In this document: positions 27,889-47,505 of the stretch, one piece after another | Position numbering within the stretch: position 1 is the stretch's first letter | Layout of the letters: every line of letters begins with the position of its first letter | Made by a program: the position numbers and the translations under genes | Assembly: GCA_963977015.1 (NCBI GenBank) | Contig: CAXBMO010000006.1 | Coordinates: forward strand, 128,001 to 192,000 | Source of the DNA: an uncultured bacterium | GTDB taxonomy: Bacteria; Verrucomicrobiota; Verrucomicrobiia; Verrucomicrobiales; DEV007 | Reading direction: 5' to 3' | DNA length: 64,000 nt | The notes under the pieces: model-generated | Databases searched by the model: none | Seen by the model: only the letters and a program-made list of their open reading frames with translations | Told to the model about the DNA's origin: nothing

Positions 27889-28662
27889 ATGGGGAACTTT
27901 TTTCCACGCTGGACGAACTTCTTACCGCTCAAACTCATCGCTGCCGTCATCGTTTTAGGCACGGGAGCAGTAGCGGCAATCACCGTATATTGGACGCCCA
28001 AGTATAGCCGAGTCGGCTATCAACCGGAGCAGCCGATACCGTTTGATCATAGCCTACATGCGGGGCAGTTGGGGATGGATTGTCGTTACTGTCATACGCA
28101 GGTCGAAAATTCGTTGCACTCAAATGTTCCGACGTCGCAGACCTGCTGGAACTGTCACCAATTCGTGAAAAAGGATAGCCCGAAGCTTGCGAAGCTTCGT
28201 GAGGCGATGGCGGTAGGGACTGATGAGTATACGGGGGATCCGATCGAGTGGGTGCAGGTTCATAAAACGCCGGACTACGCCTACTTTAGTCACCAGGCTC
28301 ACGTGAATCGAGGGGTTAGCTGTGTTGAGTGCCACGGTAAGGTGAATGAGATGGAGGTTGTTCGCCACGAAGAGTCCTTGAGCATGAGTTTCTGTTTGGA
28401 TTGTCATCGGAATCCGGAAAAGGCGCTTCGCCCGTTGGATGAAATAACGAATTTGGACTGGACTGCGGAAGATGCGGATCGGGATGAGTTTTACGCTTAT
28501 CTGGCGGGTGTGACGAAAAAGTCGCCCGAGGAGTTGCTGGAGGTTGCGAAGAGTCATGGTCTGACGCCGGAAGGTGGGATGACGCAGAAAGAAATTGGCA
28601 CCCAGCTTAGAGAGGCTTGGGGTGTGCATCCGCCTGAGAGTTGCACGGCTTGTCATCGATAA
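27889..28662 (+). CDS. actA: Alternative complex III pentaheme cytochrome c
   Basis: N-terminal TM; five CxxCH (CRYCH, CWNCH, CVECH, CLDCH, CTACH); QPIPFDH. Confidence 0.92.
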   Translation: MGNFFPRWTNFLPLKLIAAVIVLGTGAVAAITVYWTPKYSRVGYQPEQPIPFDHSLHAGQLGMDCRYCHTQVENSLHSNVPTSQTCWNCHQFVKKDSPKLAKLREAMAVGTDEYTGDPIEWVQVHKTPDYAYFSHQAHVNRGVSCVECHGKVNEMEVVRHEESLSMSFCLDCHRNPEKALRPLDEITNLDWTAEDADRDEFYAYLAGVTKKSPEELLEVAKSHGLTPEGGMTQKEIGTQLREAWGVHPPESCTACHR

Positions 28663-28697: not shown

Positions 28698-31600
28698 ATG
28701 AAACGTAAGTGGCATCATCCTAAAGCTGAACGCATCGAATCGACTGTTGATCGGAAGTATTGGCGTGGATACGACGAATTGGAGGATACTCCTGAGTTCC
28801 GGGGGTGGTTGGAAAAAGAATTCCCGCGCGGTGCTGCAGAAGTTTCTGGCCCTGAAGCGGATGAAACTACTCGCCGTGGTTTCATGAAATACATGGGGGC
28901 TTCTGCTTCTCTTGCGGGTTTGGGGTTGGCGAGTTGTCGTCGCCCGGATCAATATCTGATCCCCTACAATGAGCATGTTGAGCATCTCATTCCGGGTAAG
29001 GCGTTGCTTTATTCTTCGGCGATGCCGACTGCGGATGGGTGTGTTCCATTGGTTGTGACGACCCACGAAGGGCGGCCGACAAAGGTGGACGGAAACCGTC
29101 TTCATCCTGAGCTTGCGGGTGGGACCAGCGCGTTTGTTCAGGCTTCGGTTCTCAATCTCTATGATCCGGATCGCTCGAGGGATTACCGCAAGGGTGGTGA
29201 AAAGGTTTCGGTTGGTGAGTTTGAGGAGGGGTTTTTAAATGGGTTTCGTGCTTCCGGTGGTGAAAAGGCGGCGATTCTTCTTGGGGGTAGCACTTCACCG
29301 ACTCGTGCTCGGGTTTTGGAGCAGGTGAAAGCCAAGTTTCCTCAGGTTCAGATTTTCGAATATGAGCCGCTGCTTTCTGAAGCGAAGAAACGGGCTGAGA
29401 AGCAATTGTTTGGTGAGGGTGTTTCGGCGGTTCCTCGGATTGATTTTGCGGATAAGATCCTGTCCTTGGATTGCGACTTTTTGGGGCTCGATCCGCAAGG
29501 TGAGGATCCTGCTGCGCAATGGGCAAAGCGTCGTGATCCGGAGGGTGAGATGGCTCGCTTGTATGCCGTTGAGTCTGCGTTCACGGTCACGGGTGGTATT
29601 TCTGATCACCGGCTTCGGGTGCCCGCGAGCCAGGTGGTGAAGGTTGCCGCGCTGTTTGCTAAAGCGCTCGGAGATCTGACCGGTGATGCGAAATTGAAGG
29701 CGGCGGCTGCGGGTGTGGTTTCGAAGTTTCGCGCCGAAGTTTTTGATCAGGAGTGGATCTCAGAGGCGGCCAAAGATCTGGCTGTATCGAAAGGAAAAGC
29801 GCTTGTGGTTGCCGGTTCTCGTCAGCCTGTTGCGGTTCAGGTGTTGGCTGGATTGATGAATTCAGCACTGGGTTCTGTCGGTGGTGGACGTGTGCCGGTT
29901 CAGCTTTTCAAGCATGGTCGGAAGTCGGTTCCGGGTATTGTTGAATTGGCTGCGGCGATGGGAGCTGGCGATGTCGATACGCTCATCGTGAGCGGTCCCA
30001 GTGATCCTGTTTATGATGCGCCGGCGGATTTGGGGTTTGCCGGGCTTTATGGGAAGTTGAAAAATTCTGTTCATATCGGGTTCCGTTACAACGCGACGGC
30101 CAAGGCCTCGGTATGGCATGTTCCTGGTTCGCATTATTTGGAGAGCTGGGGTGATGCAAGGACGGCGACCGGTGTCCTGTCCGTGGTGCAGCCGATGATT
30201 CTGCCGCTTTATGGCGGGGTATCCGATCTGGAGTTCCTGCTTTCGTTGGTGAAGGAAGAAGCTCCTGAAGGAGAGGTTGTGGAAGGTGGCGCGGATAAGG
30301 ATTTGGCCTACGAGGCGGTTCGTGAGACGTTTAAAGGATTGGCCAAAGGGGATGTTGAAAAAGCTTGGAATTTGACGCTTCGCGACGGATTTTTGGATGG
30401 TGTTCGTTATCAGCGTGTCAATTCGGCGCCTGCAGGTGGCGTGGTTGAGGTTGGCGACCTGCCAGCCTATCCCGGAAAGGATGCGATTGAGGTGGTGTTA
30501 AGCCCCAGTTGGCATGTTTGGGATGGTCGCTATGTCAATAATAGCTGGCTCCAGGAAGTTCCGGACCCGATCACCAAGTTGACTTGGGATAATGCGGCGG
30601 TGATGAGCAAAAAGACCGCGGATCGCATTGGTGTTACTCACGACGGGCAGATGGTTTCGATTTCTGTCGGCGGTCGTCCGGTGGAGGCTCCGGCTTTCCG
30701 TGTGCCTGGTCAGGCTGACTTCTCAATTCAACTGGCTCTGGGGTATGGGCAGGAAAATCCAGGCCGTGTTGGTGAGGGGACTGGGTTTAATGCATATCCG
30801 TTGATGACAACGGTGACTCCCTATTTTGTTCCTGGCGCGACGGTAACTCGCACCGGTGAAAATTACGAACTTGCTCCAACAGCGATTCATTGGAGTATGC
30901 AAGGTCGGGCCATCGTGCGCGAGGGAACGAAGGAGATGTTCGACGAGGATCATCATTTTGCGGTGGATGACGGAATGGATGCGCACATCCCGCCGAACAT
31001 TTCGCTCTACCAGGGTCCTGATTACTTTCAGAAAAATTCCGAGCAGACCGCACATGGTGCTCCTTTGCAGCGGACCAATGGTGGTTACCGGGTTGATGAG
31101 CATCATCAGTGGGGGATGACCATTGATCTCAATACCTGCACAGGTTGCAACGCTTGCACCATCGCGTGTCAGGCTGAGAACAATATTCCGGTTGTCGGAA
31201 AGCGCGAAGTGATTCGCGGACGCGAGATGCACTGGATTCGGATGGATCGCTACTTCTCCAGTCCGGCGGAGAAAGAGGGAGATCATTCCGGAATGACTTC
31301 GCAGAAAGTTCTGACCAACGATCGGAGAGGGCGCCCTGCTCACGACGACGATCATGTCGAAATGCTGATGCAGCCCGTTGCTTGTGTGCAATGTGAGTCT
31401 GCTCCTTGCGAAACCGTTTGTCCGGTGAACGCGACCGTTCACAGCGCGGATGGTCTCAATGCGATGACCTACAATCGTTGTATCGGCACGCGTTACTGCG
31501 CCAACAACTGCCCCTACAAGGCTCGTCGTTTCAACTACTTCGACTACAACAAGCGGAGTGTGGTTCAGGAAACCGAGAAGGCCGGCATCAAGGCGAACGA

Positions 31601-32054
31601 TCTTGATTGGGGCCCGCTGGCTGAGGCTCGCGGACTGGGAACGACAAGTCTCAAGCTGCAGAAGAACCCCAACGTGACCGTCCGGATGCGGGGTGTGATT
31701 GAAAAGTGCACCTACTGCGTGCAGAGAATTCAAGCGGCCAAGATCGATCAGAAGGCCAAGGCGCGTGATTCCAAAGATGTCCAGGTTCCCGCAAATACGG
31801 TGCGGACGGCTTGCCAGGATGCCTGCGGGTCCGGAGCCATTACCTTCGGGAATATGCTGGCCAAAGGCGACGATATCCGGAAGCAGAAGGGAACGCCGGA
31901 GAAGAATTTTGAAGATGCGAATCCGAGGAGCTATGACCTGCTCAAGTATATCGGAACGCGCCCGCGCACCAGTTATCTGGCCAAAGTGCGCAACCCCAAT
32001 TCGAAGATGCCCGGTGCTGAGCATGTCGGGCAGGCAACCGCGCAGATGCACTAA
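28698..32054 (+). CDS. actB: ACIII molybdopterin-fold + Fe-S subunit
   Basis: KYWR, internal Tat motif TRRGFMK plus lipobox LASC, GRPTKVDGN; C-terminal CTGCNAC, CVQC..PC..VCP, CIGTRYCANNCP, EKCTYC. Confidence 0.94.
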   Translation: MKRKWHHPKAERIESTVDRKYWRGYDELEDTPEFRGWLEKEFPRGAAEVSGPEADETTRRGFMKYMGASASLAGLGLASCRRPDQYLIPYNEHVEHLIPGKALLYSSAMPTADGCVPLVVTTHEGRPTKVDGNRLHPELAGGTSAFVQASVLNLYDPDRSRDYRKGGEKVSVGEFEEGFLNGFRASGGEKAAILLGGSTSPTRARVLEQVKAKFPQVQIFEYEPLLSEAKKRAEKQLFGEGVSAVPRIDFADKILSLDCDFLGLDPQGEDPAAQWAKRRDPEGEMARLYAVESAFTVTGGISDHRLRVPASQVVKVAALFAKALGDLTGDAKLKAAAAGVVSKFRAEVFDQEWISEAAKDLAVSKGKALVVAGSRQPVAVQVLAGLMNSALGSVGGGRVPVQLFKHGRKSVPGIVELAAAMGAGDVDTLIVSGPSDPVYDAPADLGFAGLYGKLKNSVHIGFRYNATAKASVWHVPGSHYLESWGDARTATGVLSVVQPMILPLYGGVSDLEFLLSLVKEEAPEGEVVEGGADKDLAYEAVRETFKGLAKGDVEKAWNLTLRDGFLDGVRYQRVNSAPAGGVVEVGDLPAYPGKDAIEVVLSPSWHVWDGRYVNNSWLQEVPDPITKLTWDNAAVMSKKTADRIGVTHDGQMVSISVGGRPVEAPAFRVPGQADFSIQLALGYGQENPGRVGEGTGFNAYPLMTTVTPYFVPGATVTRTGENYELAPTAIHWSMQGRAIVREGTKEMFDEDHHFAVDDGMDAHIPPNISLYQGPDYFQKNSEQTAHGAPLQRTNGGYRVDEHHQWGMTIDLNTCTGCNACTIACQAENNIPVVGKREVIRGREMHWIRMDRYFSSPAEKEGDHSGMTSQKVLTNDRRGRPAHDDDHVEMLMQPVACVQCESAPCETVCPVNATVHSADGLNAMTYNRCIGTRYCANNCPYKARRFNYFDYNKRSVVQETEKAGIKANDLDWGPLAEARGLGTTSLKLQKNPNVTVRMRGVIEKCTYCVQRIQAAKIDQKAKARDSKDVQVPANTVRTACQDACGSGAITFGNMLAKGDDIRKQKGTPEKNFEDANPRSYDLLKYIGTRPRTSYLAKVRNPNSKMPGAEHVGQATAQMH

Positions 32055-32069
32055 TTTTTACTGACCCAG

Positions 32070-33455
<1,386 letters not shown>

Positions 33456-34034: not shown

Positions 34035-34733
34035 ATGCGCTGGTTTTTCCTCATTACTTTTCTATTTGCAGTCCTCTGGGTCGGCCTTTGGGGCTGGCAG
34101 GGACAGACGTCGACCAATAATCCGGTCGAGGTGTTCCAGGACATGGATCATCAATACAAACTGCGTCCCCAGAAGCAGAGCGACTTCTTTGCTGACGGAA
34201 TGGTCAGTCGCAAGCCGGTGGAAGGAACCGTTCCCATGGGATACGTGGTTCCGGACAAGGCGATTTCCAAAGGTGGAAAGACCGATCCCCGGCTTGGCTT
34301 GTCCAATGACTACTACAGCACGGGACTGATCGGAGAGTTTTTCGGCTCCGGATTCCCTGAAGGGATTGAGGTCAGTGAGGACTTGCTGGATCGCGGTGAG
34401 CAGCGATTTGATATCTATTGCAGCGTTTGTCACGGGATGAGCGGTTACGGGAAAGGGGTTGTCGCCTCGTTCTGGTTGGGAGGAACACTTCCGCCGACCG
34501 CGAATCTGATTGATCCGAGAGTTGCTGAAATGCCGGAGGGACAGATTTTCCACACCATCACCAACGGGAAAGGCCTGATGGGGCCTTATGGAGGAAATAT
34601 CCCGCCAAATGATCGCTGGGCGATTGTGGCCTATTTACGTGCTCTTCAATTGAGCCAGAAGGCAGATCTGAAAAATCCGAAGGTGAAGGCTGCCTTCGAT
34701 GCCGCAGCCCAGAGCACCGAATCTACTCAATGA
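34035..34733 (+). CDS. actE: ACIII monoheme cytochrome c
   Basis: DMDHQYK..PQ...FF.DG...R.PV.GTV, CSVCH, distal Met in GLMGPY, RWAIVAY; start reset. Confidence 0.92.
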   Translation: MRWFFLITFLFAVLWVGLWGWQGQTSTNNPVEVFQDMDHQYKLRPQKQSDFFADGMVSRKPVEGTVPMGYVVPDKAISKGGKTDPRLGLSNDYYSTGLIGEFFGSGFPEGIEVSEDLLDRGEQRFDIYCSVCHGMSGYGKGVVASFWLGGTLPPTANLIDPRVAEMPEGQIFHTITNGKGLMGPYGGNIPPNDRWAIVAYLRALQLSQKADLKNPKVKAAFDAAAQSTESTQ

Positions 34734-36280
34734 GCGCCCACAAATCTGTTAAAGACCTCCCGAAAGGTGGAGAAAAGATCGACGGCAGCAAGGTTGCTGG
34801 AGCCAAGATGTTGTTTGCCCTGCTTGGGGTGATCGGCTTGGGAGGTATCCTGATTGCTTTCTTCATGGACGGTGAAAGTCATGAAGACGTTGCCGACCAG
34901 GCATCCTATTCTTATTTGTTCGCCTTTACCTTTGCTCTCACTTTGGGAATGGGCGGTTTGTTTTGGACCATTCTGCATCACGCGACCAACTCGGGATGGG
35001 GGATTTCAGTCCGTCGCCAAATGGAGAACATCATGGGGCTGCTGCCGTGGGTGTTCGTGCTTTCGATTCCTTTTTGGATTCCCAGCATTCGCGAAGATCT
35101 CTGGGAGTGGGAAGCCAAGGCGGTAAAACTGAAGGCTGAGGCCGGGAAGCTTGTTTCAGGTCACCTTGCGACGGAAAATGCTGAGTGGTCCCATCAGGTA
35201 GAGGATCTCAAGGGAAAAATCGCCGAACGAAAGGCATTGCTCGGAAATCTTGAGACGGGTGGGGGCGTAACGCCCGGAGACCTTGAGGCGATCAAGGAAC
35301 AAAGCATCGATCTCGAAGCAAAACTCGCGGTGCTTGAATCTGAGAAGCCGAATGCGAAGTCGGTTCTCAAACACCTGATGAAAGTCGGTGATGAAGAGCA
35401 TGGTCTTCAGGGAGATACCCTTTTGACGGAGAAATGGTTCTTCTACTTTAAGGACACCAAATTGCGCCTCGTTCTCTACACGGTCATTTTCGTGCTGATC
35501 GTCTATCTTCTAAGAAGTTGGTCGATTCGAAACGATAAGATCGCCGGAGAGGACTTGTTCAAACGCTCTCGTTACTGGAGCTGCTTCTTCCTGATTCCGT
35601 TTGCGGCTGGCTACACCTTCATGGTGATCGATTTCCTCATGTCCCTGAACTACAAGTGGTTCTCGACCATGTGGGGAGTTTACCTGTTTGCCGGCGCCGC
35701 CCTCAATGGGATGGGACTGTTGGTAATTGTTATCACCTGGTTGCGCAGCAAGGGTTATCTGAAGGAAGTCGTCAGTGACGAGCACTATCACCTGATGGGG
35801 AAACTGATGTTTACCTTCTGTGTGTTCTGGGCCTACATCGCATTCAGTCAGTATTTCTTGATTTGGTATGCCAACATTACGGAAGAGACGGAATTCTTCC
35901 TCCTGCGGAACAGCGGCGAGTGGCGAACTGTGAGTATGGCCCTCGTGGTGGGACACTTCTTCATCCCGTTTGTGATTCTTCTATGGCGGGGTGTGAAGAA
36001 GAAGGCCCATTTGATTTGCACGGTAGCGGTTTGGAACCTGGTGATGCACGTTGTTGATGTTTACTGGATCGTGATTCCCGAGCGCGCACCGAGCCTGAGT
36101 GCCTTGGCTCATTCTAAAGAGCCTGTTCTCTGGTATCCAGGAGCTCTCCTCTTTGATCTTTTAGCCTTGGTCGGCGTTGTCGGTGTCTTGGGATACGTTC
36201 TCATCCACATCATTCAGAAATCGAGTCTCTACCCCTGTGGTGACCCTCGGTTGGAAGAGTCAATTAACGTTGTGAACTAG
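34730..36280 (+). CDS. actF: ACIII membrane subunit F (with coiled-coil insertion)
   Basis: WFSTMWG, HLMGKLMF.F..FWAYIAFSQY.LIWYANI.EET, terminal DPRL.ES. Confidence 0.92.
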   Translation: MSAHKSVKDLPKGGEKIDGSKVAGAKMLFALLGVIGLGGILIAFFMDGESHEDVADQASYSYLFAFTFALTLGMGGLFWTILHHATNSGWGISVRRQMENIMGLLPWVFVLSIPFWIPSIREDLWEWEAKAVKLKAEAGKLVSGHLATENAEWSHQVEDLKGKIAERKALLGNLETGGGVTPGDLEAIKEQSIDLEAKLAVLESEKPNAKSVLKHLMKVGDEEHGLQGDTLLTEKWFFYFKDTKLRLVLYTVIFVLIVYLLRSWSIRNDKIAGEDLFKRSRYWSCFFLIPFAAGYTFMVIDFLMSLNYKWFSTMWGVYLFAGAALNGMGLLVIVITWLRSKGYLKEVVSDEHYHLMGKLMFTFCVFWAYIAFSQYFLIWYANITEETEFFLLRNSGEWRTVSMALVVGHFFIPFVILLWRGVKKKAHLICTVAVWNLVMHVVDVYWIVIPERAPSLSALAHSKEPVLWYPGALLFDLLALVGVVGVLGYVLIHIIQKSSLYPCGDPRLEESINVVN

Positions 36281-36287
36281 AATTTCG

Positions 36288-36878
36288 ATGAGTAAGCAAC
36301 TTCATCCCGCAGACAAACCACTTCTCAGACTCGGCGCCTATCTTGGCGGTTTCGTCGCCATTTTCGCTTTCGCTTTGTTGGGGCTCCTCATTGCCAAAGC
36401 TCCCGTTCGAAGCAGCGAACCTTCCTTTTCGGAGGAGACAGCCAATGCTCGGAAAGCGATCGCTGATAAAGTCAAGGCAGCAGATGTCGCTGCCCTTACC
36501 GAGCCGGAGTTGATTGATGAAGCTTCCGGGGTTGTTCGAATTCCGATTGCAGCGGCCAAAGACGTGGTTCTTGAAGAACTCCAGAGCCTGAAGCCGAAGA
36601 AGTCTGCCATTCCCCTTCCGGGTTCGGCTGCCGCAACCAAGCTCATGCAAGAGCAGTCCGCGCCGGCTCCAGCAGCCAAAGCTGAGCCAAAGGAGGAAGC
36701 GCCCAAGAAACCCAAGGCCAAACCACAAGCAGCGGAGAAGAAAACGCCTGCTGCTGCGGAGCCGAAGCAACCAAAGAAGCCTCAGCAAAAGCCGAAGGCG
36801 GACGCTGTGCCGACGGACGAGGCCAAGCCTGCTTCCAAGCCTGAAACTCCCGCGAAACCATCAAACCCGCAGGGTTAG
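36288..36878 (+). CDS. ActG-like single-TM protein with Pro/Lys/Ala-rich tail
   Basis: One TM helix, GVVRIPI..A motif, position directly after actF. Confidence 0.6.
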   Translation: MSKQLHPADKPLLRLGAYLGGFVAIFAFALLGLLIAKAPVRSSEPSFSEETANARKAIADKVKAADVAALTEPELIDEASGVVRIPIAAAKDVVLEELQSLKPKKSAIPLPGSAAATKLMQEQSAPAPAAKAEPKEEAPKKPKAKPQAAEKKTPAAAEPKQPKKPQQKPKADAVPTDEAKPASKPETPAKPSNPQG

Positions 36879-36883
36879 TTTTT

Positions 36884-38356
36884 ATGAGTTCCGATACCAA
36901 CGAAATCGATATTAACCTTCGCGCGCAGATTGATCGCTCACTGCGCTTTCCGTTGCTATTTTTCTTCACGAGCGCCGCTGTATGGTTGGTTTTCGGCACG
37001 GCGTTGGGGTTTGTCAGCTCCTTGAGCTTGAATTTCCCCGGCCTGTTTGAAGGATGCGCGTTCCTGTCCTACGGCCGGGTCTTTCCAGCTCAAATGAATG
37101 CGCTGGTATACGGTTGGGGAATGCAGGCCGGTTTTGGAGTCGCCCTGTGGATTATGGCTCGTTTGAGTCGCTCCACCTTGAAAAACCCGGCGACAGTCAT
37201 CGTCGCCGGCCATGTCTGGAATGCGATGATCCTGTTTGGCTTGTTCTCGATCCTTTTTGGTTGGGGGACTTCAATTATGTGGTTGGATTTTCCGAAGGCC
37301 TTCGCACCTGCCGTGGTCGGAACCTTTATCGTGATCATGATCTGGGCGTTGGGAATGTTTGCGGCACGCCGCGACCGCGAAGCCTACGTATCCCAATGGT
37401 ACATTCTCGCCTCTATTCTCTGGTTTCCTTGGATTTACCTCACCGCCAATTGGTTCATCCACATTGATGAAGGTGCGGCCGTGATCAAGGCTGGGATTGA
37501 TGCCTGGTATGTCAGCAACATGATTTACATGGTGCTCGCCCCAATCGCGTTGGCTTCTGCCTACTATATTGTTCCCAAGGTCATTGGTCGGCCGATCTAT
37601 AGCAACAGTATCGCAGTGTTTGGATTTTGGACGCTGGCGATTTTCGCCGGTTGGACGGGGATGAATCGAATCATGGGCGGGCCTCTTCCGGCTTGGATGC
37701 CCACCTTTGGAAGCGCCGCTGCCATATTCCTGCTCATTCCTGCGTTGGCAGTTGCCTTTAACCTGGTAAAGACGCTCGGTTCACGTTCGGATTGGATCAG
37801 CTACAGTCCTTCGTTGCGATTCACCATTTTCGGAGTCTTCGCCTTTGTCGTGACCGTGGCGCTCGGCGCGATCATGTCCATCTTCCCTGCCGGAAAGATC
37901 TTTCAATTCACTCATGCGCAGGCCGGCTACGACCTGCTCGCGGTATATGGGTTTTACTCAATGACCATTCTTGGTGCGATCTACTTTATCGTTCCCCGGA
38001 TTGTCGGTTGCGAGTGGATCAACGGGGGCTGGATTCGATTCCATTTCTGGTTTTCGGCCTATGGAACCATCGCCATTGTGGCGTTCATGGTGTTCGCCGG
38101 CATGGCCCAGGGTTACATCATCAACAACTGGGGAGAGGATTTCTTAACCTCCGTCGAACGAGGAAAGCCCTACTTGGCTTCGCTCTGTTTGGGATGGGGA
38201 CTCATCGTTATTTCAAACATCGCCTTCCTGTTTCACCTCGGTCTGATGGCGATTAAGCGCGGCCGAACCGATGAGGTCGGGCCGACCTTGATTCATAAAC
38301 AGCCAGAGGATTACTTTGCAGAAACAGAACTAAGCAAGGAAGGAGCAAACGCATGA
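36884..38356 (+). CDS. CcoN-like (cbb3 subunit I fold) protein lacking all metal ligands
   Basis: CcoN landmarks SYGR, YVSQWY, YYIVPK...RPIYS, LPAW, GAIYFIVPR, HFW retained; His ligands substituted; followed by ccoO-like gene. Confidence 0.88.
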   Translation: MSSDTNEIDINLRAQIDRSLRFPLLFFFTSAAVWLVFGTALGFVSSLSLNFPGLFEGCAFLSYGRVFPAQMNALVYGWGMQAGFGVALWIMARLSRSTLKNPATVIVAGHVWNAMILFGLFSILFGWGTSIMWLDFPKAFAPAVVGTFIVIMIWALGMFAARRDREAYVSQWYILASILWFPWIYLTANWFIHIDEGAAVIKAGIDAWYVSNMIYMVLAPIALASAYYIVPKVIGRPIYSNSIAVFGFWTLAIFAGWTGMNRIMGGPLPAWMPTFGSAAAIFLLIPALAVAFNLVKTLGSRSDWISYSPSLRFTIFGVFAFVVTVALGAIMSIFPAGKIFQFTHAQAGYDLLAVYGFYSMTILGAIYFIVPRIVGCEWINGGWIRFHFWFSAYGTIAIVAFMVFAGMAQGYIINNWGEDFLTSVERGKPYLASLCLGWGLIVISNIAFLFHLGLMAIKRGRTDEVGPTLIHKQPEDYFAETELSKEGANA

Positions 38357-39000
38357 ACAGTTTTCGCGGTTTCATTTTATGTTTAGGGGCAACTTTCGCC
38401 CTCCCTTGGATCTTCCTGATCGTGGTTCCTTTCAAGGCGACCTCCAATCTGGATGTCGTAGAGTTTGAGGTCGAAGGCGAGAAGGTGACCTATCCACCAG
38501 CGCGTGTCGGAGCCGTTCGCGGCGCGGAAGTTTATGCCAGGAATGGTTGCGCCTACTGCCATACACAGATGGTTCGGCCAACGTATGCCGGGACTGATAT
38601 GTGGAGACCCGGTTGGGCTGGAAGAGGGGGCGAGGAATCAACCCTGCGTTCCACCATCCCACAAGATTACCTTGGAGAGAAGTATGCTTATCTGGGAGCC
38701 TTGCGCCACGGACCTGATTTGAGCAACGTCGGTTGGCGGATCACCGACCGGAAATGGCACTACGAGCATTTGTATGATCCTCGCTCGATCAAACCGACAA
38801 CCATCATGCCGAGCTACCGCAACCTTTTCGAGAAACGCCGGGTGATTGGGCAGCTCTCCGCAGATGCGATCGAGACGTTTGAGAAGAATGGCGAAACCTG
38901 GGAAGTGGTTCCCAGCAATGACGCAAAGTCTCTGGTCGATTACTTGATGTCGCTGAAGAAGGACTTTCTCGTACCCGACAGTCTTGCAGCAACGAAATAA
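38353..39000 (+). CDS. CcoO-like (cbb3 subunit II) monoheme cytochrome c
   Basis: G.EVY..NGCAYCHTQMVRP, GPDLSNVG, HLYDPR, IMPSY distal Met. Confidence 0.9.
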   Translation: MNSFRGFILCLGATFALPWIFLIVVPFKATSNLDVVEFEVEGEKVTYPPARVGAVRGAEVYARNGCAYCHTQMVRPTYAGTDMWRPGWAGRGGEESTLRSTIPQDYLGEKYAYLGALRHGPDLSNVGWRITDRKWHYEHLYDPRSIKPTTIMPSYRNLFEKRRVIGQLSADAIETFEKNGETWEVVPSNDAKSLVDYLMSLKKDFLVPDSLAATK

Positions 39001-39774
39001 ATGGCGATGGACGAAGATCACAATCAGAACTTGGATTACGGCGAACGCTCAAGCGTTGCGGATTTGAACTCAGCGGTGAAGCGTGAAAAATCGGAGCCTA
39101 CCGCAGGGTTGGAGCCCGTTTCGATCTGGGCTTTCATCATTGCGGGATTGGTGATGGTCGCTGGCGGTGCCTACCTCGGCGCGTATTCAGCGGGTGGCTT
39201 GAGCATGAAGAACACTTACGCGGTTGCCAACTACGTTCCAGCGGAACGCCCGGTGCTTGAAGGATCTGTTGTGGTCGAGGATACGCGACCTTGGATTGAC
39301 AAGTGGATGGCTGGTGGGAAATCCGTCTATGCCACCTGTCAGGCTTGTCACCAGACCAACGGAAACGGGATGCCTGGCCAATTTCCTCCTCTTGGCGATT
39401 CAGAGTGGGTGGTGAACGGCACTGAACGACTTGGCGCAATCCTGTTTCCCGGGATTCAAGGGCCGATGAGCGTCAAAGGATCGACTTACAATGGGTTGAT
39501 GCCAGCCCAAGGCGCAATGTTAAGCGACAAGCAGATCGCACAGGTCATGACCTATATCCGCCGCAGTTTCGGAAATGATGCGTCTGTTGTGACGGAAGAA
39601 ATGGTGAAGAATGCGCGGGCCAAGTATGGTTCCCGAACCGCACCATGGTCCGAAGCAGAACTTCTGGAAATTCCTCAAGACGCGATGCTTCCGGGCGCTG
39701 AAGTTGATTTGCAGACAGGGGAGCCGTTGGGAGGCGGGGAATCTGGAGGTGACGAACCTGCATCGGACGTATAG
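39001..39774 (+). CDS. Membrane-anchored monoheme cytochrome c
   Basis: TM helix, CQACH, FPPL, YNGLMPA, IAQVMTYIR. Confidence 0.9.
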   Translation: MAMDEDHNQNLDYGERSSVADLNSAVKREKSEPTAGLEPVSIWAFIIAGLVMVAGGAYLGAYSAGGLSMKNTYAVANYVPAERPVLEGSVVVEDTRPWIDKWMAGGKSVYATCQACHQTNGNGMPGQFPPLGDSEWVVNGTERLGAILFPGIQGPMSVKGSTYNGLMPAQGAMLSDKQIAQVMTYIRRSFGNDASVVTEEMVKNARAKYGSRTAPWSEAELLEIPQDAMLPGAEVDLQTGEPLGGGESGGDEPASDV

Positions 39775-43297: not shown

Positions 43298-43720
43298 ATG
43301 GCAAGTTCACCCGAAGAAATTCGTAAACACATCAACACCTACTGGAAGGTTGGTGCCGCGCTCTGCGTGTTCACCTGCATCACCCTTGCGCTGGGGATTT
43401 GGCATCCGTTTGATTTTGGTTTTCCCGGTGTCGACACCATCGATATTGTTGTGGGTTTGTTGGTCGCCACCATCAAAACCAGCTTGGTGATGCTGATCTT
43501 CATGCACTTGAACCACGAGCGGGGTTTGATCTACAAGACCCTCCTGTTCACCGTTGCGTTCGCCATTAGTTTGATGGGCCTCTCGTTGTTTGCGAAGGCT
43601 GACCCGATCAAAGCGCATTCCGATGTTACGGTAAAAGTGGACCGCGAAGGCGAGAAGGAACGTATTATTGGTAGTGCGAACCAACCTCACTCCGATTCGA
43701 CGAAGGAGAGTTCCCACTAA
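43298..43720 (+). CDS. ctaF: Cytochrome c oxidase subunit IV family
   Basis: Three TM segments, ATIKTSLVMLIFMHL. Confidence 0.88.
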   Translation: MASSPEEIRKHINTYWKVGAALCVFTCITLALGIWHPFDFGFPGVDTIDIVVGLLVATIKTSLVMLIFMHLNHERGLIYKTLLFTVAFAISLMGLSLFAKADPIKAHSDVTVKVDREGEKERIIGSANQPHSDSTKESSH

Positions 43721-43747
43721 GGAAACACCCATCCGAAACTTCCAACC

Positions 43748-43951
43748 ATGAGTCTGAAGCAATTCCATGTCTTTTTCATCACACTAGCAGTGCTCTGCAC
43801 GTTTAGTTTTGGTGTTTGGGCACTCTTTGCTCCATCAGACATCGTGGGAACATGGGGAAGAGTGGGTGGTTTCTTAAGCGCCGCCATCGGAGTTGCCCTG
43901 GTTCCTTATGGCATCTGGTTCGTCCGGAAATCGAAGAACATCATCACGTAA
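43748..43951 (+). CDS. Small two-TM protein in oxidase operon
   Basis: MSLKQFHVFFI..., two hydrophobic helices, operonic position. Confidence 0.7.
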   Translation: MSLKQFHVFFITLAVLCTFSFGVWALFAPSDIVGTWGRVGGFLSAAIGVALVPYGIWFVRKSKNIIT

Positions 43952-43983
43952 TCGCACGCGGCCACCCCTGACCTATACTTCCC

Positions 43984-44184
43984 ATGGACCTTCTTAATTT
44001 AGATACCATTCTAGCCTGTCCCGCTTGCCGGTTTAATGACTCCAGTGTAACCCAGGCCGCCAATCTTGCGATCGGGGTCATGGTGATGGTGGTTTTTGGA
44101 GTTCTCAGTGCCTTCATAGCCTTTATTGTCAAACTAGCAAAGGGCGAGCGCGCTGTAGCCGCCGTGGAAACACGCCAGCATTAA
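43984..44184 (+). CDS. Small membrane protein with CPxC motif
   Basis: LACPAC followed by a TM helix, immediately upstream of subunit II. Confidence 0.65.
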   Translation: MDLLNLDTILACPACRFNDSSVTQAANLAIGVMVMVVFGVLSAFIAFIVKLAKGERAVAAVETRQH

Positions 44185-44225
44185 TTGTGTGAGACTGGCT
44201 GGGAAGCCTCAATTGATTTAGTAAA

Positions 44226-45020
44226 ATGGATCCTATTCTTGGTTTTAGTATTAACGAACTTCTTGGACAGCCTGAGTTGGCTTCAAAGCATGGTGGTCAG
44301 ATCGATCACATGCTGGAAGTCGTTCACTGGTTCATGGCCATTCTCGGAATTGGATGGACCATTTTCTTTTTCACCGTTCTCTTCAAATTCAACAAGAGGG
44401 CGAATCCGGCGGCAAGTTACAAGGGAGTAACCTCGCATTTTACGACCCACCTTGAGGTGCTGGTTGTGATTGTCGAAGTCGTTCTGCTCTTGGGTTTCGC
44501 GTTTCCACTCTGGGCCAAGCGCGTTGAGGACATTCCGAGCGAGGACGATCCCAATGTGGTGCGAGTCCGTGCTGTCGGAGAGCAATTCCGATGGAATTTT
44601 CATTATGCAGGAGCTGACGGTCGTTTTGGTTTGGTCAAGCCGGAGAACATCAACGGGACCAATCCTGTTGGTTTGGTCAACGCCGATCCGAATGCCTTTG
44701 ACGACTTCCTCGCGAACGAGCTGATCTTGCCAAAGGATCGGATGTGTATTGTTCAGGTATCCTCCAAAGACGTCATTCATAACCTGGCGCTGATCCCCAT
44801 GCGGATTCAGCAGGACGCGATTCCAGGAATGGAGATTCCGATGTATTTCACCCCAACCAAGACCGGTCGTTGGGACATTGTTTGTGCCCAGCTCTGTGGT
44901 GCAGGCCATGCCAAAATGGTCGCCTTTCTGGACGTTCAGGAACAAGAGGAGTTTGATTCATGGTTTACCCAGAAAACCGAATCTGCTGCTGCCAAGGCAA
45001 CCGCTGCGGCTGCCCAGTAG
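44226..45020 (+). CDS. ctaC: Cytochrome c oxidase subunit II (CuA, no fused cytochrome c)
   Basis: Two TM, QFRWNF.Y, DVIH, CAQLCGAGHAKM CuA motif; ends without CxxCH. Confidence 0.94.
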   Translation: MDPILGFSINELLGQPELASKHGGQIDHMLEVVHWFMAILGIGWTIFFFTVLFKFNKRANPAASYKGVTSHFTTHLEVLVVIVEVVLLLGFAFPLWAKRVEDIPSEDDPNVVRVRAVGEQFRWNFHYAGADGRFGLVKPENINGTNPVGLVNADPNAFDDFLANELILPKDRMCIVQVSSKDVIHNLALIPMRIQQDAIPGMEIPMYFTPTKTGRWDIVCAQLCGAGHAKMVAFLDVQEQEEFDSWFTQKTESAAAKATAAAAQ

Positions 45021-45113: not shown

Positions 45114-46112
45114 ATGTCTCTCGTCCTCAGAACTGCTCAAGTAGCGCTCGTTTCGGTCATCGTGCTCGTCTTTGTCGGCGCGATTGTGAGGTCATCCGGC
45201 GCTGGATTGGGATGCCCTGATTGGCCGACTTGCTGGGGACGCATCATTCCTCCCACCAAAGCGGAGCAGATCGATCCGGAGAAGCTGGACATTCCCAGAT
45301 TCAAGCGATACGCGGAGCGCCACGGCATCGACCCCGACACGGTTGAGCGAGAATCGGTTCTGGGTAGCTTCAATGCGGTTCACACTTGGACGGAGTTCAT
45401 CAATCGTCTCACATCGTTGCCCTTGGGGGTATCGACCCTGCTCCTGGCCATCTTCTCGTTTCGGGCAAGCCGTCATCGCAAGTGGGTAGTCGCCTTGGCT
45501 TGGTTTGCCCTCCTCGATGTTCTCTTCAATGCGTGGATGGGGGCCGAAGTCGTCCGCAGTGGATTGAAGCCGGGCATCATCACCCTTCACATGGCGCTCG
45601 CATTGCTGCTGATCTGTGTGCTGGTCACCATCACATGGTTGTCCCGCACCCCAAAGGTGTTGGACATTGGTGAAACCCGCCATCTCCGATGGGTGTCGCT
45701 TCTCTTTTTCGTCTGTCTCTTCGCGGAAGGCATCTTCGGGAGCCAGGTGCGCGAAATGACCGACCAACTGGCCAAAGCGGCTGGAGATATGCCGCGAAGT
45801 GAGTGGATTGGCGCGCTTGCCTCCACCTCCATTTACCAGATTCACCGGAGCTTTTCGTGGTCACTGCTCGTTTCCGCCGGAGCCGTGTTCTGGCTTGCCC
45901 GGCGCAGCAGGAGCGGCGCTGAGGCTTGGGAGCCCAAAGTGATCCTTGGAATCGTTCTCGCCATGATGTGCATGGGAATCATTCTCGCCCACGTTGCGAT
46001 TTATCCCGTCGTTCAGGTCCTCCACGTTGGACTCACCGCAATTTTGCTTGCCGTAACCTGGAAATGGGTGCTGGAAGTCTTATCCGCCCCACGCCATGAG
46101 CACTCCATCTGA
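45114..46112 (+). CDS. ctaA: Heme A synthase (COX15/CtaA)
   Basis: GAGLGCPDWPTC, EFINR, TLHM, IHR, VLHV. Confidence 0.9.
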   Translation: MSLVLRTAQVALVSVIVLVFVGAIVRSSGAGLGCPDWPTCWGRIIPPTKAEQIDPEKLDIPRFKRYAERHGIDPDTVERESVLGSFNAVHTWTEFINRLTSLPLGVSTLLLAIFSFRASRHRKWVVALAWFALLDVLFNAWMGAEVVRSGLKPGIITLHMALALLLICVLVTITWLSRTPKVLDIGETRHLRWVSLLFFVCLFAEGIFGSQVREMTDQLAKAAGDMPRSEWIGALASTSIYQIHRSFSWSLLVSAGAVFWLARRSRSGAEAWEPKVILGIVLAMMCMGIILAHVAIYPVVQVLHVGLTAILLAVTWKWVLEVLSAPRHEHSI

Positions 46113-46974
46113 TATTCCTTCTCGCGCCGATCTCGTCGAGCTCACCAAAGCTCGGTTGAGCATCATGGTGGTCGTGACAACGGGGGCCGGCTTCATCTCC
46201 GGTTGGCCTGACGAGACGCCATTCCATTTCGCGCTTCTGTTTCACACCGTTTTTGGAACGATTTTGTCCGCCTTTGGCGCCGCCGTCTTCAATCAGCTGA
46301 TGGAGATTCAGGCCGACAAGAAGATGAAACGCACGGCAGACCGGCCGTTGCCTGCGGGGCGCATTCCGCCGGCTGGTGCGTTTGTGATTGGTTGGGTGTT
46401 GTCCGCCTTTGGCGTGGTTCACCTCGGTGTCAAAGTCAATACCTGGGCCGCGGTCATCGCCGGCCTTACGTTGGTGGTTTACATCTTCATCTACACGCCC
46501 CTCAAGCGCCGTTCGAGTTGGAACACGATTGTCGGCGCGGTCGCGGGTGCGCTTCCTCCGGTGATCGGCTGGGTTGGAGCGGGCCGGGGCTTGGATGCTG
46601 GAGCACTCTGGTGGTTTGCCCTGCTGTTCTTTTGGCAGCTTCCCCACTTCTTCGCCATCAACTGGATTTACCGGGAAGAGTATCAGAAAGGGGGCTTCAT
46701 CATGTTGGCCAATCAGGATGACGATGGGAGCAAGACATCGCGTTGGGCGCTCATCTTTGCCGTCTCGTTGGTGCTGCTGGCGTTCGTTGCACCCGTGGCT
46801 GAAATCACGCGGTGGTGGTTTGTCTTTCCCGGAGCCCTTGCGGCGGGATGGCTCGTGATGCTGTCGCTCAAGTTCGTCAAAACGCCCGAACGTTCGACCG
46901 GACGCCGTCTCTTTTTCGGGACCTTGATCTATCTGCCGATCGTGCTTGTTGCAGCGCTGCTCGCGAAGCCGTAG
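46096..46974 (+). CDS. ctaB: Protoheme IX farnesyltransferase (heme O synthase)
   Basis: LTKAR, NQ..E...D..M.RT..RPLP, YTPLKR, WQLPHF. Confidence 0.95.
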   Translation: MSTPSDIPSRADLVELTKARLSIMVVVTTGAGFISGWPDETPFHFALLFHTVFGTILSAFGAAVFNQLMEIQADKKMKRTADRPLPAGRIPPAGAFVIGWVLSAFGVVHLGVKVNTWAAVIAGLTLVVYIFIYTPLKRRSSWNTIVGAVAGALPPVIGWVGAGRGLDAGALWWFALLFFWQLPHFFAINWIYREEYQKGGFIMLANQDDDGSKTSRWALIFAVSLVLLAFVAPVAEITRWWFVFPGALAAGWLVMLSLKFVKTPERSTGRRLFFGTLIYLPIVLVAALLAKP

Positions 46975-46985
46975 CATGGTTGGCG

Positions 46986-47498
46986 ATGGAGCCATTCGAA
47001 CTCAATACGGAGCGCCTCCAATTGCGTCACCTCGGCTTGGACGACTTTGACGCGATGCGCGAGATCCAGGGCGACGACGAAACGATGAGTTTCTACGGTG
47101 GTGCGTTTTGTTCCGAGAAAACCACGAACTGGATCGAACGAAGTCTCGCTTCCTACGCAGAAAACGGATTTGGGCTCTGGGCCGTCATTCATCGCCAGGA
47201 AGCGCGCTTGGTGGGGCTGTGCGGAATCACCTATCAACTTATCGATGGGGAGCAAATCCCCGAAATCGGTTATCAGTTCAATCGCAACTATTGGGGGCGG
47301 GGTCTCGCCACGGAAGCGGCGATCGCCTGTCGAGATCATGGATTCACGGAACTGCGCTTCCCGAGGTTGGTGTCGTGGATGGCGCCGGACAACTTTCCCT
47401 CCCGCCGGGTCGCCGAACGTGTCGGAATGACGATGTGGAAGGAAGTCATCAATTCCAAAACCGGAACTCCCCATGTGGTCTACGCGATCGAGCCATGA
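46986..47498 (+). CDS. GNAT acetyltransferase, RimJ/RimL-like
   Basis: TERLQLR, EIGY, YWGRGLATEAA, N.PSRRVAERVGM; start reset. Confidence 0.9.
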   Translation: MEPFELNTERLQLRHLGLDDFDAMREIQGDDETMSFYGGAFCSEKTTNWIERSLASYAENGFGLWAVIHRQEARLVGLCGITYQLIDGEQIPEIGYQFNRNYWGRGLATEAAIACRDHGFTELRFPRLVSWMAPDNFPSRRVAERVGMTMWKEVINSKTGTPHVVYAIEP

Positions 47499-47505
47499 CC
47501 GCGAC

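Follow-up and report, generated by a model that had tools for sequence, protein, structure and literature searches.

A conserved CcoN homologue without canonical haem and copper ligands in an alternative complex III operon of Verrucomicrobiota

We analysed a 64,000-nucleotide stretch of DNA (the window) from an uncultured bacterium of the Verrucomicrobiales (DEV007; contig CAXBMO010000006.1, positions 128,001 to 192,000). It contains a gene cluster for alternative complex III (ACIII) and an aa3-type oxidase. Within this cluster lies a gene for a homologue of CcoN, subunit I of cbb3-type oxidases, that has lost its metal ligands. The feature is real, conserved and mis-annotated. A role as the scaffold of a haem-c relay is a plausible mechanism for its retention.

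36884..38356, + strand: ligand-less CcoN homologue with a COX1 fold of 12 transmembrane (TM) helices; the six His ligands and the cross-link Tyr have all been replaced

The open reading frame (ORF) starts with ATG at 36884 and ends with TGA at 38354-38356. It encodes 490 amino acids with no internal stop, and its stop codon overlaps the next ATG (ATGA, 38353-38356). The protein matches Pfam COX1 at 141 bits. It matches the NCBIfam equivalog TIGR00780 (ccoN) at 121.2 bits, below the cutoff of 583.15. The best match of a phmmer search against PDB sequences was 3mk7_A, the CcoN of Pseudomonas stutzeri (E 4.4e-30), with residues 28-436 aligned to 18-439. Only canonical cbb3 subunit I chains matched in that search, and no solved member of the ligand-less family was among them. 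The AlphaFold2 model, built with 100 homologues, had a predicted local distance difference test score (pLDDT) of 91.8 and a predicted template modelling score of 0.92. Foldseek matched the model to 3mk7_A with E 6e-22 and template modelling scores of 0.86 and 0.90. At these COX1 and Foldseek scores, chance is not an issue for the homology to CcoN.

In P. stutzeri CcoN, the low-spin haem b is ligated by H60 and H347 and haem b3 by H345. CuB is bound by H207, H257 and H258, and Y251 is the cross-linked active-site Tyr of helix VII. The P. stutzeri positions and the aligned residues of the window protein are as follows.

H60 (haem b): Q70
H207 (CuB): S211
Y251 (cross-link Tyr): A255
H257 (CuB): N261
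H258 (CuB): R262
H345 (haem b3): Y349
H347 (haem b): L351

The phmmer-aligned motifs (P. stutzeri/window protein) are GRLRPLHTN/GRVFPAQMN, WYGHN/WYVSN, VYIWAGPHH/FAGWTGMNR and IGHVH/AGYDL. A MAFFT alignment with the canonical CcoN of the same genome (P0125) gave HHYHHHH for that protein and QSANRYL for the window protein in the same seven columns. The remaining His residues of the window protein are at 110, 193, 344, 387, 451 and 471, and none of them is in a ligand column. Of the six, H387 alone is conserved, and canonical CcoN has it too. An earlier note, made by eye from the letters, had listed the same seven substitutions and placed the six remaining His elsewhere. It had also described an uninterrupted 490-residue frame that overlaps the start of a CcoO-like gene and keeps its TM pattern. 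The alignments, the codon positions and the predicted fold agree with it on each of these points.

Judged from these columns, the window subunit is unable to ligate haem b, haem b3 or CuB canonically. Reduction of O2 (or NO) by this subunit is expected to be absent because no metal ligands remain. It presumably holds no cofactor at all.

In a search of 90%-identity clusters for close relatives, 8000 candidates were scored and 844 proteins passed E <= 1e-5. The best 120 of the 844 cluster matches, which are 46-91% identical to the query, formed a set of 121 sequences together with it. Where these best 120 relatives carry names, they are called cbb3-type cytochrome c oxidase subunit I and are assigned to Verrucomicrobiota. 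His was found in the H207, H257, H258, H345 and H347 columns of 1, 1, 3, 1 and 0 of the 121 sequences, respectively. Tyr was found in the Y251 column of none. At 77 positions, conservation across the same sequences is 97% or more. Among 50%-identity representatives, a full HMMER scan matched 1675 at E <= 1e-3 and 316 at E <= 1e-30. Among the 136 full-length sequences from the best 150 representatives, only 4 contained the complete HHYHHHH set. One of the four is from Telmatocola sphagniphila (P0133) and one is from Burkholderiales.

Two positions at the former binuclear site covary in the close homologues. These are position 262 (37667-37669), in the CuB His258 column, and position 350 (37931-37933), between the former haem His residues of helix X. 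The pairs in the 121-sequence set are R-D in 86, R-E in 11 and K-Q in 15, counts that are non-independent since the sequences are related. R262 and D350 may form a buried polar pair that fills the former binuclear centre, as a structural plug or as something more.

The gene is encoded in one operon with actABCDEF. The cluster is densely packed on one strand and runs from ActA-ActE through an ActF-position protein, a small TM protein, the ligand-less CcoN, a CcoO-like protein and a cytochrome c to CtaD and onward. The downstream part consists of CtaD, a COX3-like protein, COX4_pro, a CuA-type subunit II, CtaA and CtaB. The neighbours of the CcoN homologue are as follows.

27889..28662, + strand: first ORF of the act cluster; Pfam Cytochrome_C7/c3 matches; upstream of ActB in related loci
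28698..32054, + strand: ActB, Fe-S/molybdopterin-like ACIII subunit; 4Fe-4S dicluster domains, an N-terminus of the twin-arginine translocation (TAT)-variant molybdenum cofactor (MoCo)-oxidoreductase type, and QrcC/QrcB-like matches
32070..33455, + strand: ActC, NrfD-type membrane quinol-binding subunit; Pfam NrfD 78.9 bits
33458..34018, + strand: ActD; Pfam ActD (PF11821) 197 bits
33870..34733 (listed ORF), + strand: ActE, monohaem cytochrome c; Cytochrome_CBB3/Cytochrom_C domain at residues 173-259
34730..36280, + strand: ActF-position membrane subunit; conserved in position, with no match in Pfam or NCBIfam
36288..36878, + strand: small protein with one TM helix and a Pro/Ala/Lys-rich tail, encoded between ActF and the CcoN homologue
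38353..39000, + strand: CcoO-like monohaem cytochrome c with an N-terminal TM anchor; FixO 73.9 bits, with CAYCH and the Met of IMPSY kept
39001..39774, + strand: membrane-anchored monohaem cytochrome c (CQACH) in the CcoP position; Pfam Cytochrom_C, and a weak ccoP match of 32.5 bits
39839..41758, + strand: CtaD, subunit I of an A-family (aa3-type) oxidase; COX1 440.7 bits, TIGR02891 568.9 bits
41795..43294, + strand: COX3-like subunit of 499 amino acids; Pfam COX3 52.1 bits, best stretch at residues 431-497
43298..43720, + strand: subunit IV (COX4_pro); Pfam COX4_pro 40.8 bits
44226..45020, + strand: subunit II with a CuA cupredoxin domain and without a cytochrome c domain; Pfam COX2 45.4 bits
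45114..46112 and 46096..46974, + strand: CtaA and CtaB, haem A/O synthesis; COX15-CtaA 153.9 bits, UbiA 177.3 bits

The true ActE start probably lies after the ActD stop. The CcoO-like protein matches TIGR00781 at 71.5 bits, under the cutoff of 200, and the ORF of the membrane cytochrome c starts directly after its stop. The translation of CtaD contains the intact ligand motifs GHPEVY, WAHHMY and IGHFHY, and that of subunit II contains the CuA motif CAQLCGAGHAKM. The gene for subunit II comes after those for subunits I, III and IV, across a gap of about 500 bases (43720-44226), an unusual cta/cox order. The Pfam COX3 match of the COX3-like ORF is confined to the last ~70 of its 499 residues. 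Searches of Pfam and NCBIfam with the small ORF at 36288-36878 gave no match. A one-TM ORF occupies the same slot between ActF and CcoN in both liganded and ligand-less loci (for example, L084 9698-10069). Many of these copies share a motif of the type (W)VD..G.V.IPI..AM, and the window copy has the long tail listed above. Downstream of the cluster, two mirror-image frames of 979 amino acids lie on opposite strands (47473-50412, +; 47506-50445, -), and the + frame has no Pfam match.

The same genome contains a separate canonical CcoN on another contig (L002 1459-3843). It is a fused CcoN-CcoO of 794 amino acids with all ligand motifs, and its CcoN matches PF00115 at 382.7 bits. C-family O2 reduction in this genome is independent of the ligand-less gene because this liganded fusion exists. 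Long frames of about 780-850 amino acids appeared as second matches in many genomes of the class and are probably similar CcoN-CcoO fusions.

Related loci were located with a sequence pattern. A 60-row alignment contained no conserved stretch, and a 12-row alignment was used instead. Of the 599 pattern matches in species-representative genomes, 577 were confirmed. The best 80 loci were kept, all from records with Verrucomicrobiales-type titles. By tblastn with the window proteins, the gene order in these 80 loci is the same wherever the contig reaches. The CcoO-like gene was found downstream in 80/80, the cytochrome c in 79/80 and CtaD in 76/80; ActF was found upstream, between ActD and the CcoN gene, in 65/80. 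The misses fall at contig ends, except in L052, where the 10 kb upstream contain no act genes. The ActF query also gave a weak cross-match in the ActC region of one locus. The ORF of the CcoN homologue is intact in all 80 close loci and in 21/21 more distant ligand-less loci. The CcoO-like protein contains exactly one CXXCH in 126/126 related loci, and the membrane cytochrome c contains one in 122/124.

Selection was compared between the window and its two nearest relatives. Synonymous sites are saturated (proportion of synonymous differences, 0.68-0.80) in every available pair, so the comparison gives the nonsynonymous divergence (dN) and an upper bound on the ratio of dN to synonymous divergence (dS), not a precise ratio. 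The dN of the CcoN homologue was 0.082 against the 87%-identical relative (L004) and 0.129 against the second relative. Against L004, the dN was 0.061 for CtaD, 0.050 for ActC, 0.164 for ActB, 0.144 for ActF, 0.159 for the CcoO-like protein and 0.187 for Cox3. Across both relatives, the CcoN homologue lies above CtaD and ActC (0.05-0.09) and below ActB, ActF, the CcoO-like protein, Cox2 and Cox3 (0.11-0.25). The gene is under purifying selection and is not decaying. It has the properties of a pseudoenzyme: its cofactor residues are lost, it is intact, and it is under purifying selection across the clade.

The earlier note had raised clade-wide ligand loss, a tie to the act and cta neighbours, and maintenance of the gene by selection. 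It had also expected automated pipelines to mislabel the protein as a high-affinity cbb3 oxidase. The ligand columns, gene order, dN values and record names above bear this out. It had not foreseen liganded, orthologue-like copies in the same ACIII-linked slot or several separate losses.

A phylum-wide genome search gave matches in 121/401 genomes, a number that mixes liganded, ligand-less and classical fused CcoNO genes and is not a count of the family. A class-level sample was therefore described by locus and contained 46 loci from different Verrucomicrobiae genomes. ActF (between ActD and the CcoN gene), the CcoN gene, the CcoO-like gene and the cytochrome c were found in order in 43/46. 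Of the three exceptions, L121 is on a contig that ends before the act genes, L085 has neither act genes nor a cytochrome c match, and L084 has an ActF match slightly below the score threshold. In this one slot, CcoN is fully liganded in 25/46 loci and ligand-less in 21/46.

Records titled Opitutaceae encode a liganded CcoN (HHYHHHH) in 78/80 loci. The other two are without the Tyr and one or two CuB His. Partial patterns were found in P0139 from Opitutales (HHAQYHH) and in two metagenome-assembled genome records titled Opitutaceae, L184 (HHSARHH) and L197 (HHQRHHH). All three copies keep the haem ligands and have lost the cross-link Tyr and one or two CuB His. Because such copies keep haem ligands, the patterns suggest that the CuB/Tyr site was lost first.

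An IQ-TREE tree was built from 71 sequences, 30 liganded and 41 ligand-less. It needs at least five state changes, and these five are forced by well-supported branches. An approximately unbiased (AU) test rejected a single ligand-less clade (p 0.006, delta log likelihood 94.5), with an alignment that kept the ligand columns and so was biased towards grouping the ligand-less rows, and with a test group that was defined by the trait but named after the tree was seen. Since regain of seven ligands is implausible, the changes are read as losses, and the ligands appear to have been lost at least five separate times in Verrucomicrobiae. One of the losses is confined to one genus, which lies nested among liganded relatives. 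The three genomes examined from this genus (3/3) are all ligand-less with an intact gene, and their mutual identity is 60-75%. Downstream aa3 genes are also found at the liganded loci L096 and L097. In the tree, these two share a well-supported group with the ligand-less window clade and lie just outside that clade, a placement that would fit an early arrival of the aa3 genes and a later loss of the ligands.

Constraint was compared between 27 liganded ACIII-linked CcoNs and 41 ligand-less ones, with a position called conserved at 90% or above. Conservation in the liganded group but not in the ligand-less group was found at 41 positions. Among them are the full set of seven ligand positions with their neighbours, E132, H294/H295 and four positions of TM9. 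Both groups conserve 45 positions, and conservation in the ligand-less group alone was found at just 2. Because 41 positions are relaxed, 45 are kept and only 2 are specific to the ligand-less proteins, the pattern fits a redox and proton machinery that was abandoned, a fold that was kept and no common new site that was gained.

The CcoO-like protein is predicted to dock on the CcoN homologue. The complex model of the two scored 0.87, and the best control scored 0.01. The docking mark was reached by 58/80 solved complexes and 2/110 mismatched pairs. At least 94% of contacts agree between runs, and the pLDDT of the partner is 80 or more. The predicted interface includes the TM helix of the CcoO-like protein and its haem-motif region. 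Structures of cbb3 oxidases have already been solved, so this pass may reflect likeness to them and is not proof of binding. The CAYCH motif, the Met of IMPSY and the docking together predict a CcoO partner with a covalent haem c.

We consider it reasonably probable that the window protein is a non-catalytic scaffold for a haem-c relay that is attached to ACIII and hands electrons to aa3. It would descend from the catalytic CcoN of an ACIII-linked cbb3-type oxidase that kept its 12-helix fold and lost the binding of haem b, haem b3 and CuB. It may have been retained as a docking body in the membrane for the CcoO-like monohaem cytochrome c, and probably also for the membrane-anchored cytochrome c encoded next to it. 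The CcoN homologue and the two cytochromes would then make up a fixed relay of c haems on ACIII. Electrons would, in this lineage, most likely pass through it from the ActA/ActE haems to the CuA subunit of the downstream aa3, a subunit that has no cytochrome c domain of its own. That the relay is physically attached to ACIII and aa3, and that electrons flow in this direction, is what we infer from this arrangement.

Several results weigh against the scaffold reading or narrow it. Jointly conserved positions are not significantly enriched at the predicted CcoO interface (11/45, against 80/490 residues; Fisher p 0.14). A downstream aa3 cluster was found in 7/21 ligand-less loci outside the close relatives and in 2/25 liganded loci; the loci of the two groups are not phylogenetically independent. 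A general link between ligand loss and an adjacent aa3 cluster was rejected on these counts, and a relay to aa3 may apply to the window lineage only. Sequence is not decisive about haem ligation by residues other than His. Some relatives of the window protein, though not the window protein itself, might still hold one haem b because the H60 column keeps His in 85/121 sequences and the H347 column contains Met in 26/121.

Those two columns also favour a different role, in which one or more haems persist on non-canonical ligands and serve a redox function as an electron sink, store or sensor. The Opitutales representative P0139 is consistent with it as well, since it retains three haem His and one CuB His. 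We regard this role as unlikely for the window protein, in which Q70 and L351 take the place of the haem b ligands and Y349 that of the haem b3 ligand. These columns vary freely in close relatives (L/F/Y/I at 349, T/L/M/I at 351). No alternative conserved His, Met, Cys or Lys replaces them, as the sole conserved His, H387, is shared with canonical CcoN. Far less credible still is a recently inactivated gene that drifts to loss, a pseudogene open by chance. Ligand-less lineages do lie on longer branches than their liganded neighbours (for example, L100 at 0.67 and its sisters at about 0.1), and the 41 relaxed positions are in line with decay. Against this, the ORF is intact in every close and distant ligand-less locus counted above. 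Its dN of 0.08-0.13 with saturated dS is below that of several bona fide subunits of the same operon, and the 77 near-invariant positions hold across sequences of 46-91% identity. In the genus that became ligand-less independently, the gene is still intact at identities as low as 60%. This conservation and intactness contradict recent decay.

A new non-redox membrane function unrelated to cytochromes, such as a path for ions or protons, a quinol site or a part in ACIII assembly, is improbable in our view, though it deserves more credence than residual haem. It would account for the many strongly conserved TM residues and for the joining of the gene to the act genes. It would also give a role to the charged pair at the former binuclear site, where D/E350 accompanies R262 in 97 of the 99 sequences with Arg at 262 and K occurs with Q in 15/16. 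Only 2 positions are specific to all ligand-less lineages, so these proteins share no new motif. Repeated loss is easier to explain if one function was lost and an older structural one was retained, and the haem-c partners are retained everywhere. The scaffold for a haem-c relay is the explanation that we favour.

The protein resembles the CcoN of P. stutzeri (PDB 3MK7/5DJQ) in its 12-TM fold (template modelling scores 0.86-0.90) and in its end-to-end alignment. As in cbb3 oxidases, the next two genes encode a monohaem cytochrome c of the CcoO type and another membrane cytochrome c, and CcoN-CcoO docking is predicted. It differs in that the six His ligands and the Tyr are missing, in its score far under the ccoN equivalog cutoff, and in its place inside an ACIII-aa3 operon rather than a ccoNOQP operon. 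It is not filed here as a cbb3 oxidase because all ligands, the cross-link Tyr and the equivalog cutoff fail. We class it instead as a non-catalytic derivative of such an oxidase. In the trees, its closest liganded relatives are the ACIII-linked CcoNs of records titled Opitutaceae and of Telmatocola sphagniphila (P0133). They occupy the same slot (actABCDEF, small TM ORF, CcoN, CcoO-like protein, cytochrome c), are 33-38% identical to the window protein and have the 45 conserved positions in common with it. Unlike it, they keep HHYHHHH and are presumably real oxidases. Refojo et al. 2010 is said to be the first report of C-type oxidase genes next to ACIII. Our literature searches, which did not cover supplements and so leave a prior remark possible, found no published description of a ligand-less ACIII-linked CcoN.

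Excerpts of two papers describe direct transfer from haem to oxidase, without a soluble carrier, in the ACIII-aa3 of Flavobacterium johnsoniae and the ACIII-caa3 of Rhodothermus marinus (PMC5928083, PMC8361435). As described in the excerpt of the first, the extra cytochrome c domain sits on ActA in F. johnsoniae and on subunit II in R. marinus (PMC5928083). So far as these excerpts go, both supercomplexes resemble the window in having an ACIII gene cluster followed by oxidase genes. They differ in that the candidate relay of the window is a CcoO-like protein and a membrane cytochrome c on a CcoN predicted to be cofactor-less. No such CcoN-borne subunit appears in the supercomplex descriptions in those excerpts (PMC5928083, PMC8361435).

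Methylacidiphilum has a similar cluster next to ACIII. It contains act genes, a small ORF, a CcoN homologue, a CcoO-like protein, a cytochrome c and ctaD. The CcoN homologue differs from the window protein in being only ~23% identical to it and in belonging to a different ligand-less clade. The copies of M. fumariolicum SolV (L130 3001-4443) and Methylacidiphilum sp. Yel (L131) are ligand-less except for one His in the H258 column. They contain S, E and F in the H60, H207 and Y251 columns and F and V in the H345 and H347 columns. Six members were found when the SolV genome was searched for the COX1 family. The ligand-less one scored 49.5 bits, and the others scored 434, 432, 267, 250 and 198 bits. 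In a related genome (G279), the 198-bit COX1-family member is NorB. No canonical CcoN was found in the SolV genome by COX1-family search with the queries used. Judged by its translated columns, the 'cbb3 oxidase' of M. fumariolicum SolV is the ligand-less copy. This copy, the liganded CcoN in the same ACIII-linked slot and the at least five losses are new here.

Verrucomicrobial methanotrophs are stated, in excerpts of five papers, to have a cbb3-type high-affinity oxidase next to ACIII (PMC8498564, PMC6688271, PMC10205796, PMC11102522, 10.1101/2024.01.15.574570). In the excerpt of the last of these, 'cbb3' transcripts of strain IT6 showed no difference between O2-replete and anoxic growth (10.1101/2024.01.15.574570). 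Genome-based claims of respiration at very low O2 in Verrucomicrobia often rest on the annotation 'cbb3-type cytochrome c oxidase subunit I'. In the window lineage and the Methylacidiphilum records examined, the gene so annotated lacks the canonical metal binding needed for O2 reduction. Excerpts of reviews and physiology papers still count the ligand-less gene as a high-affinity oxidase (PMC8498564, PMC10205796, 10.1101/2024.01.15.574570).

The liganded and ligand-less versions in one operon slot of related bacteria, with repeated loss, are a natural experiment. The family shows what a haem-copper oxidase subunit is kept for after its chemistry is lost, and how ACIII is wired to oxidases. A bolder reading, which we put forward tentatively and hold to be possible rather than probable, is that an ACIII-bound cbb3 oxidase was turned at least five times in Verrucomicrobiae from an O2 reductase into a cofactor-free structural bridge. 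The bridge would carry a two-haem-c wire from ACIII to other oxidases, and in the window lineage a buried Arg262-Asp350 pair would fill the binuclear centre. If this is true, the subunit would be an obligatory part of an ACIII-(CcoN*-CcoO-c)-aa3 megacomplex. Many Verrucomicrobia, Methylacidiphilum among them, would then lack the 'high-affinity cbb3 oxidase' that is assumed for them.

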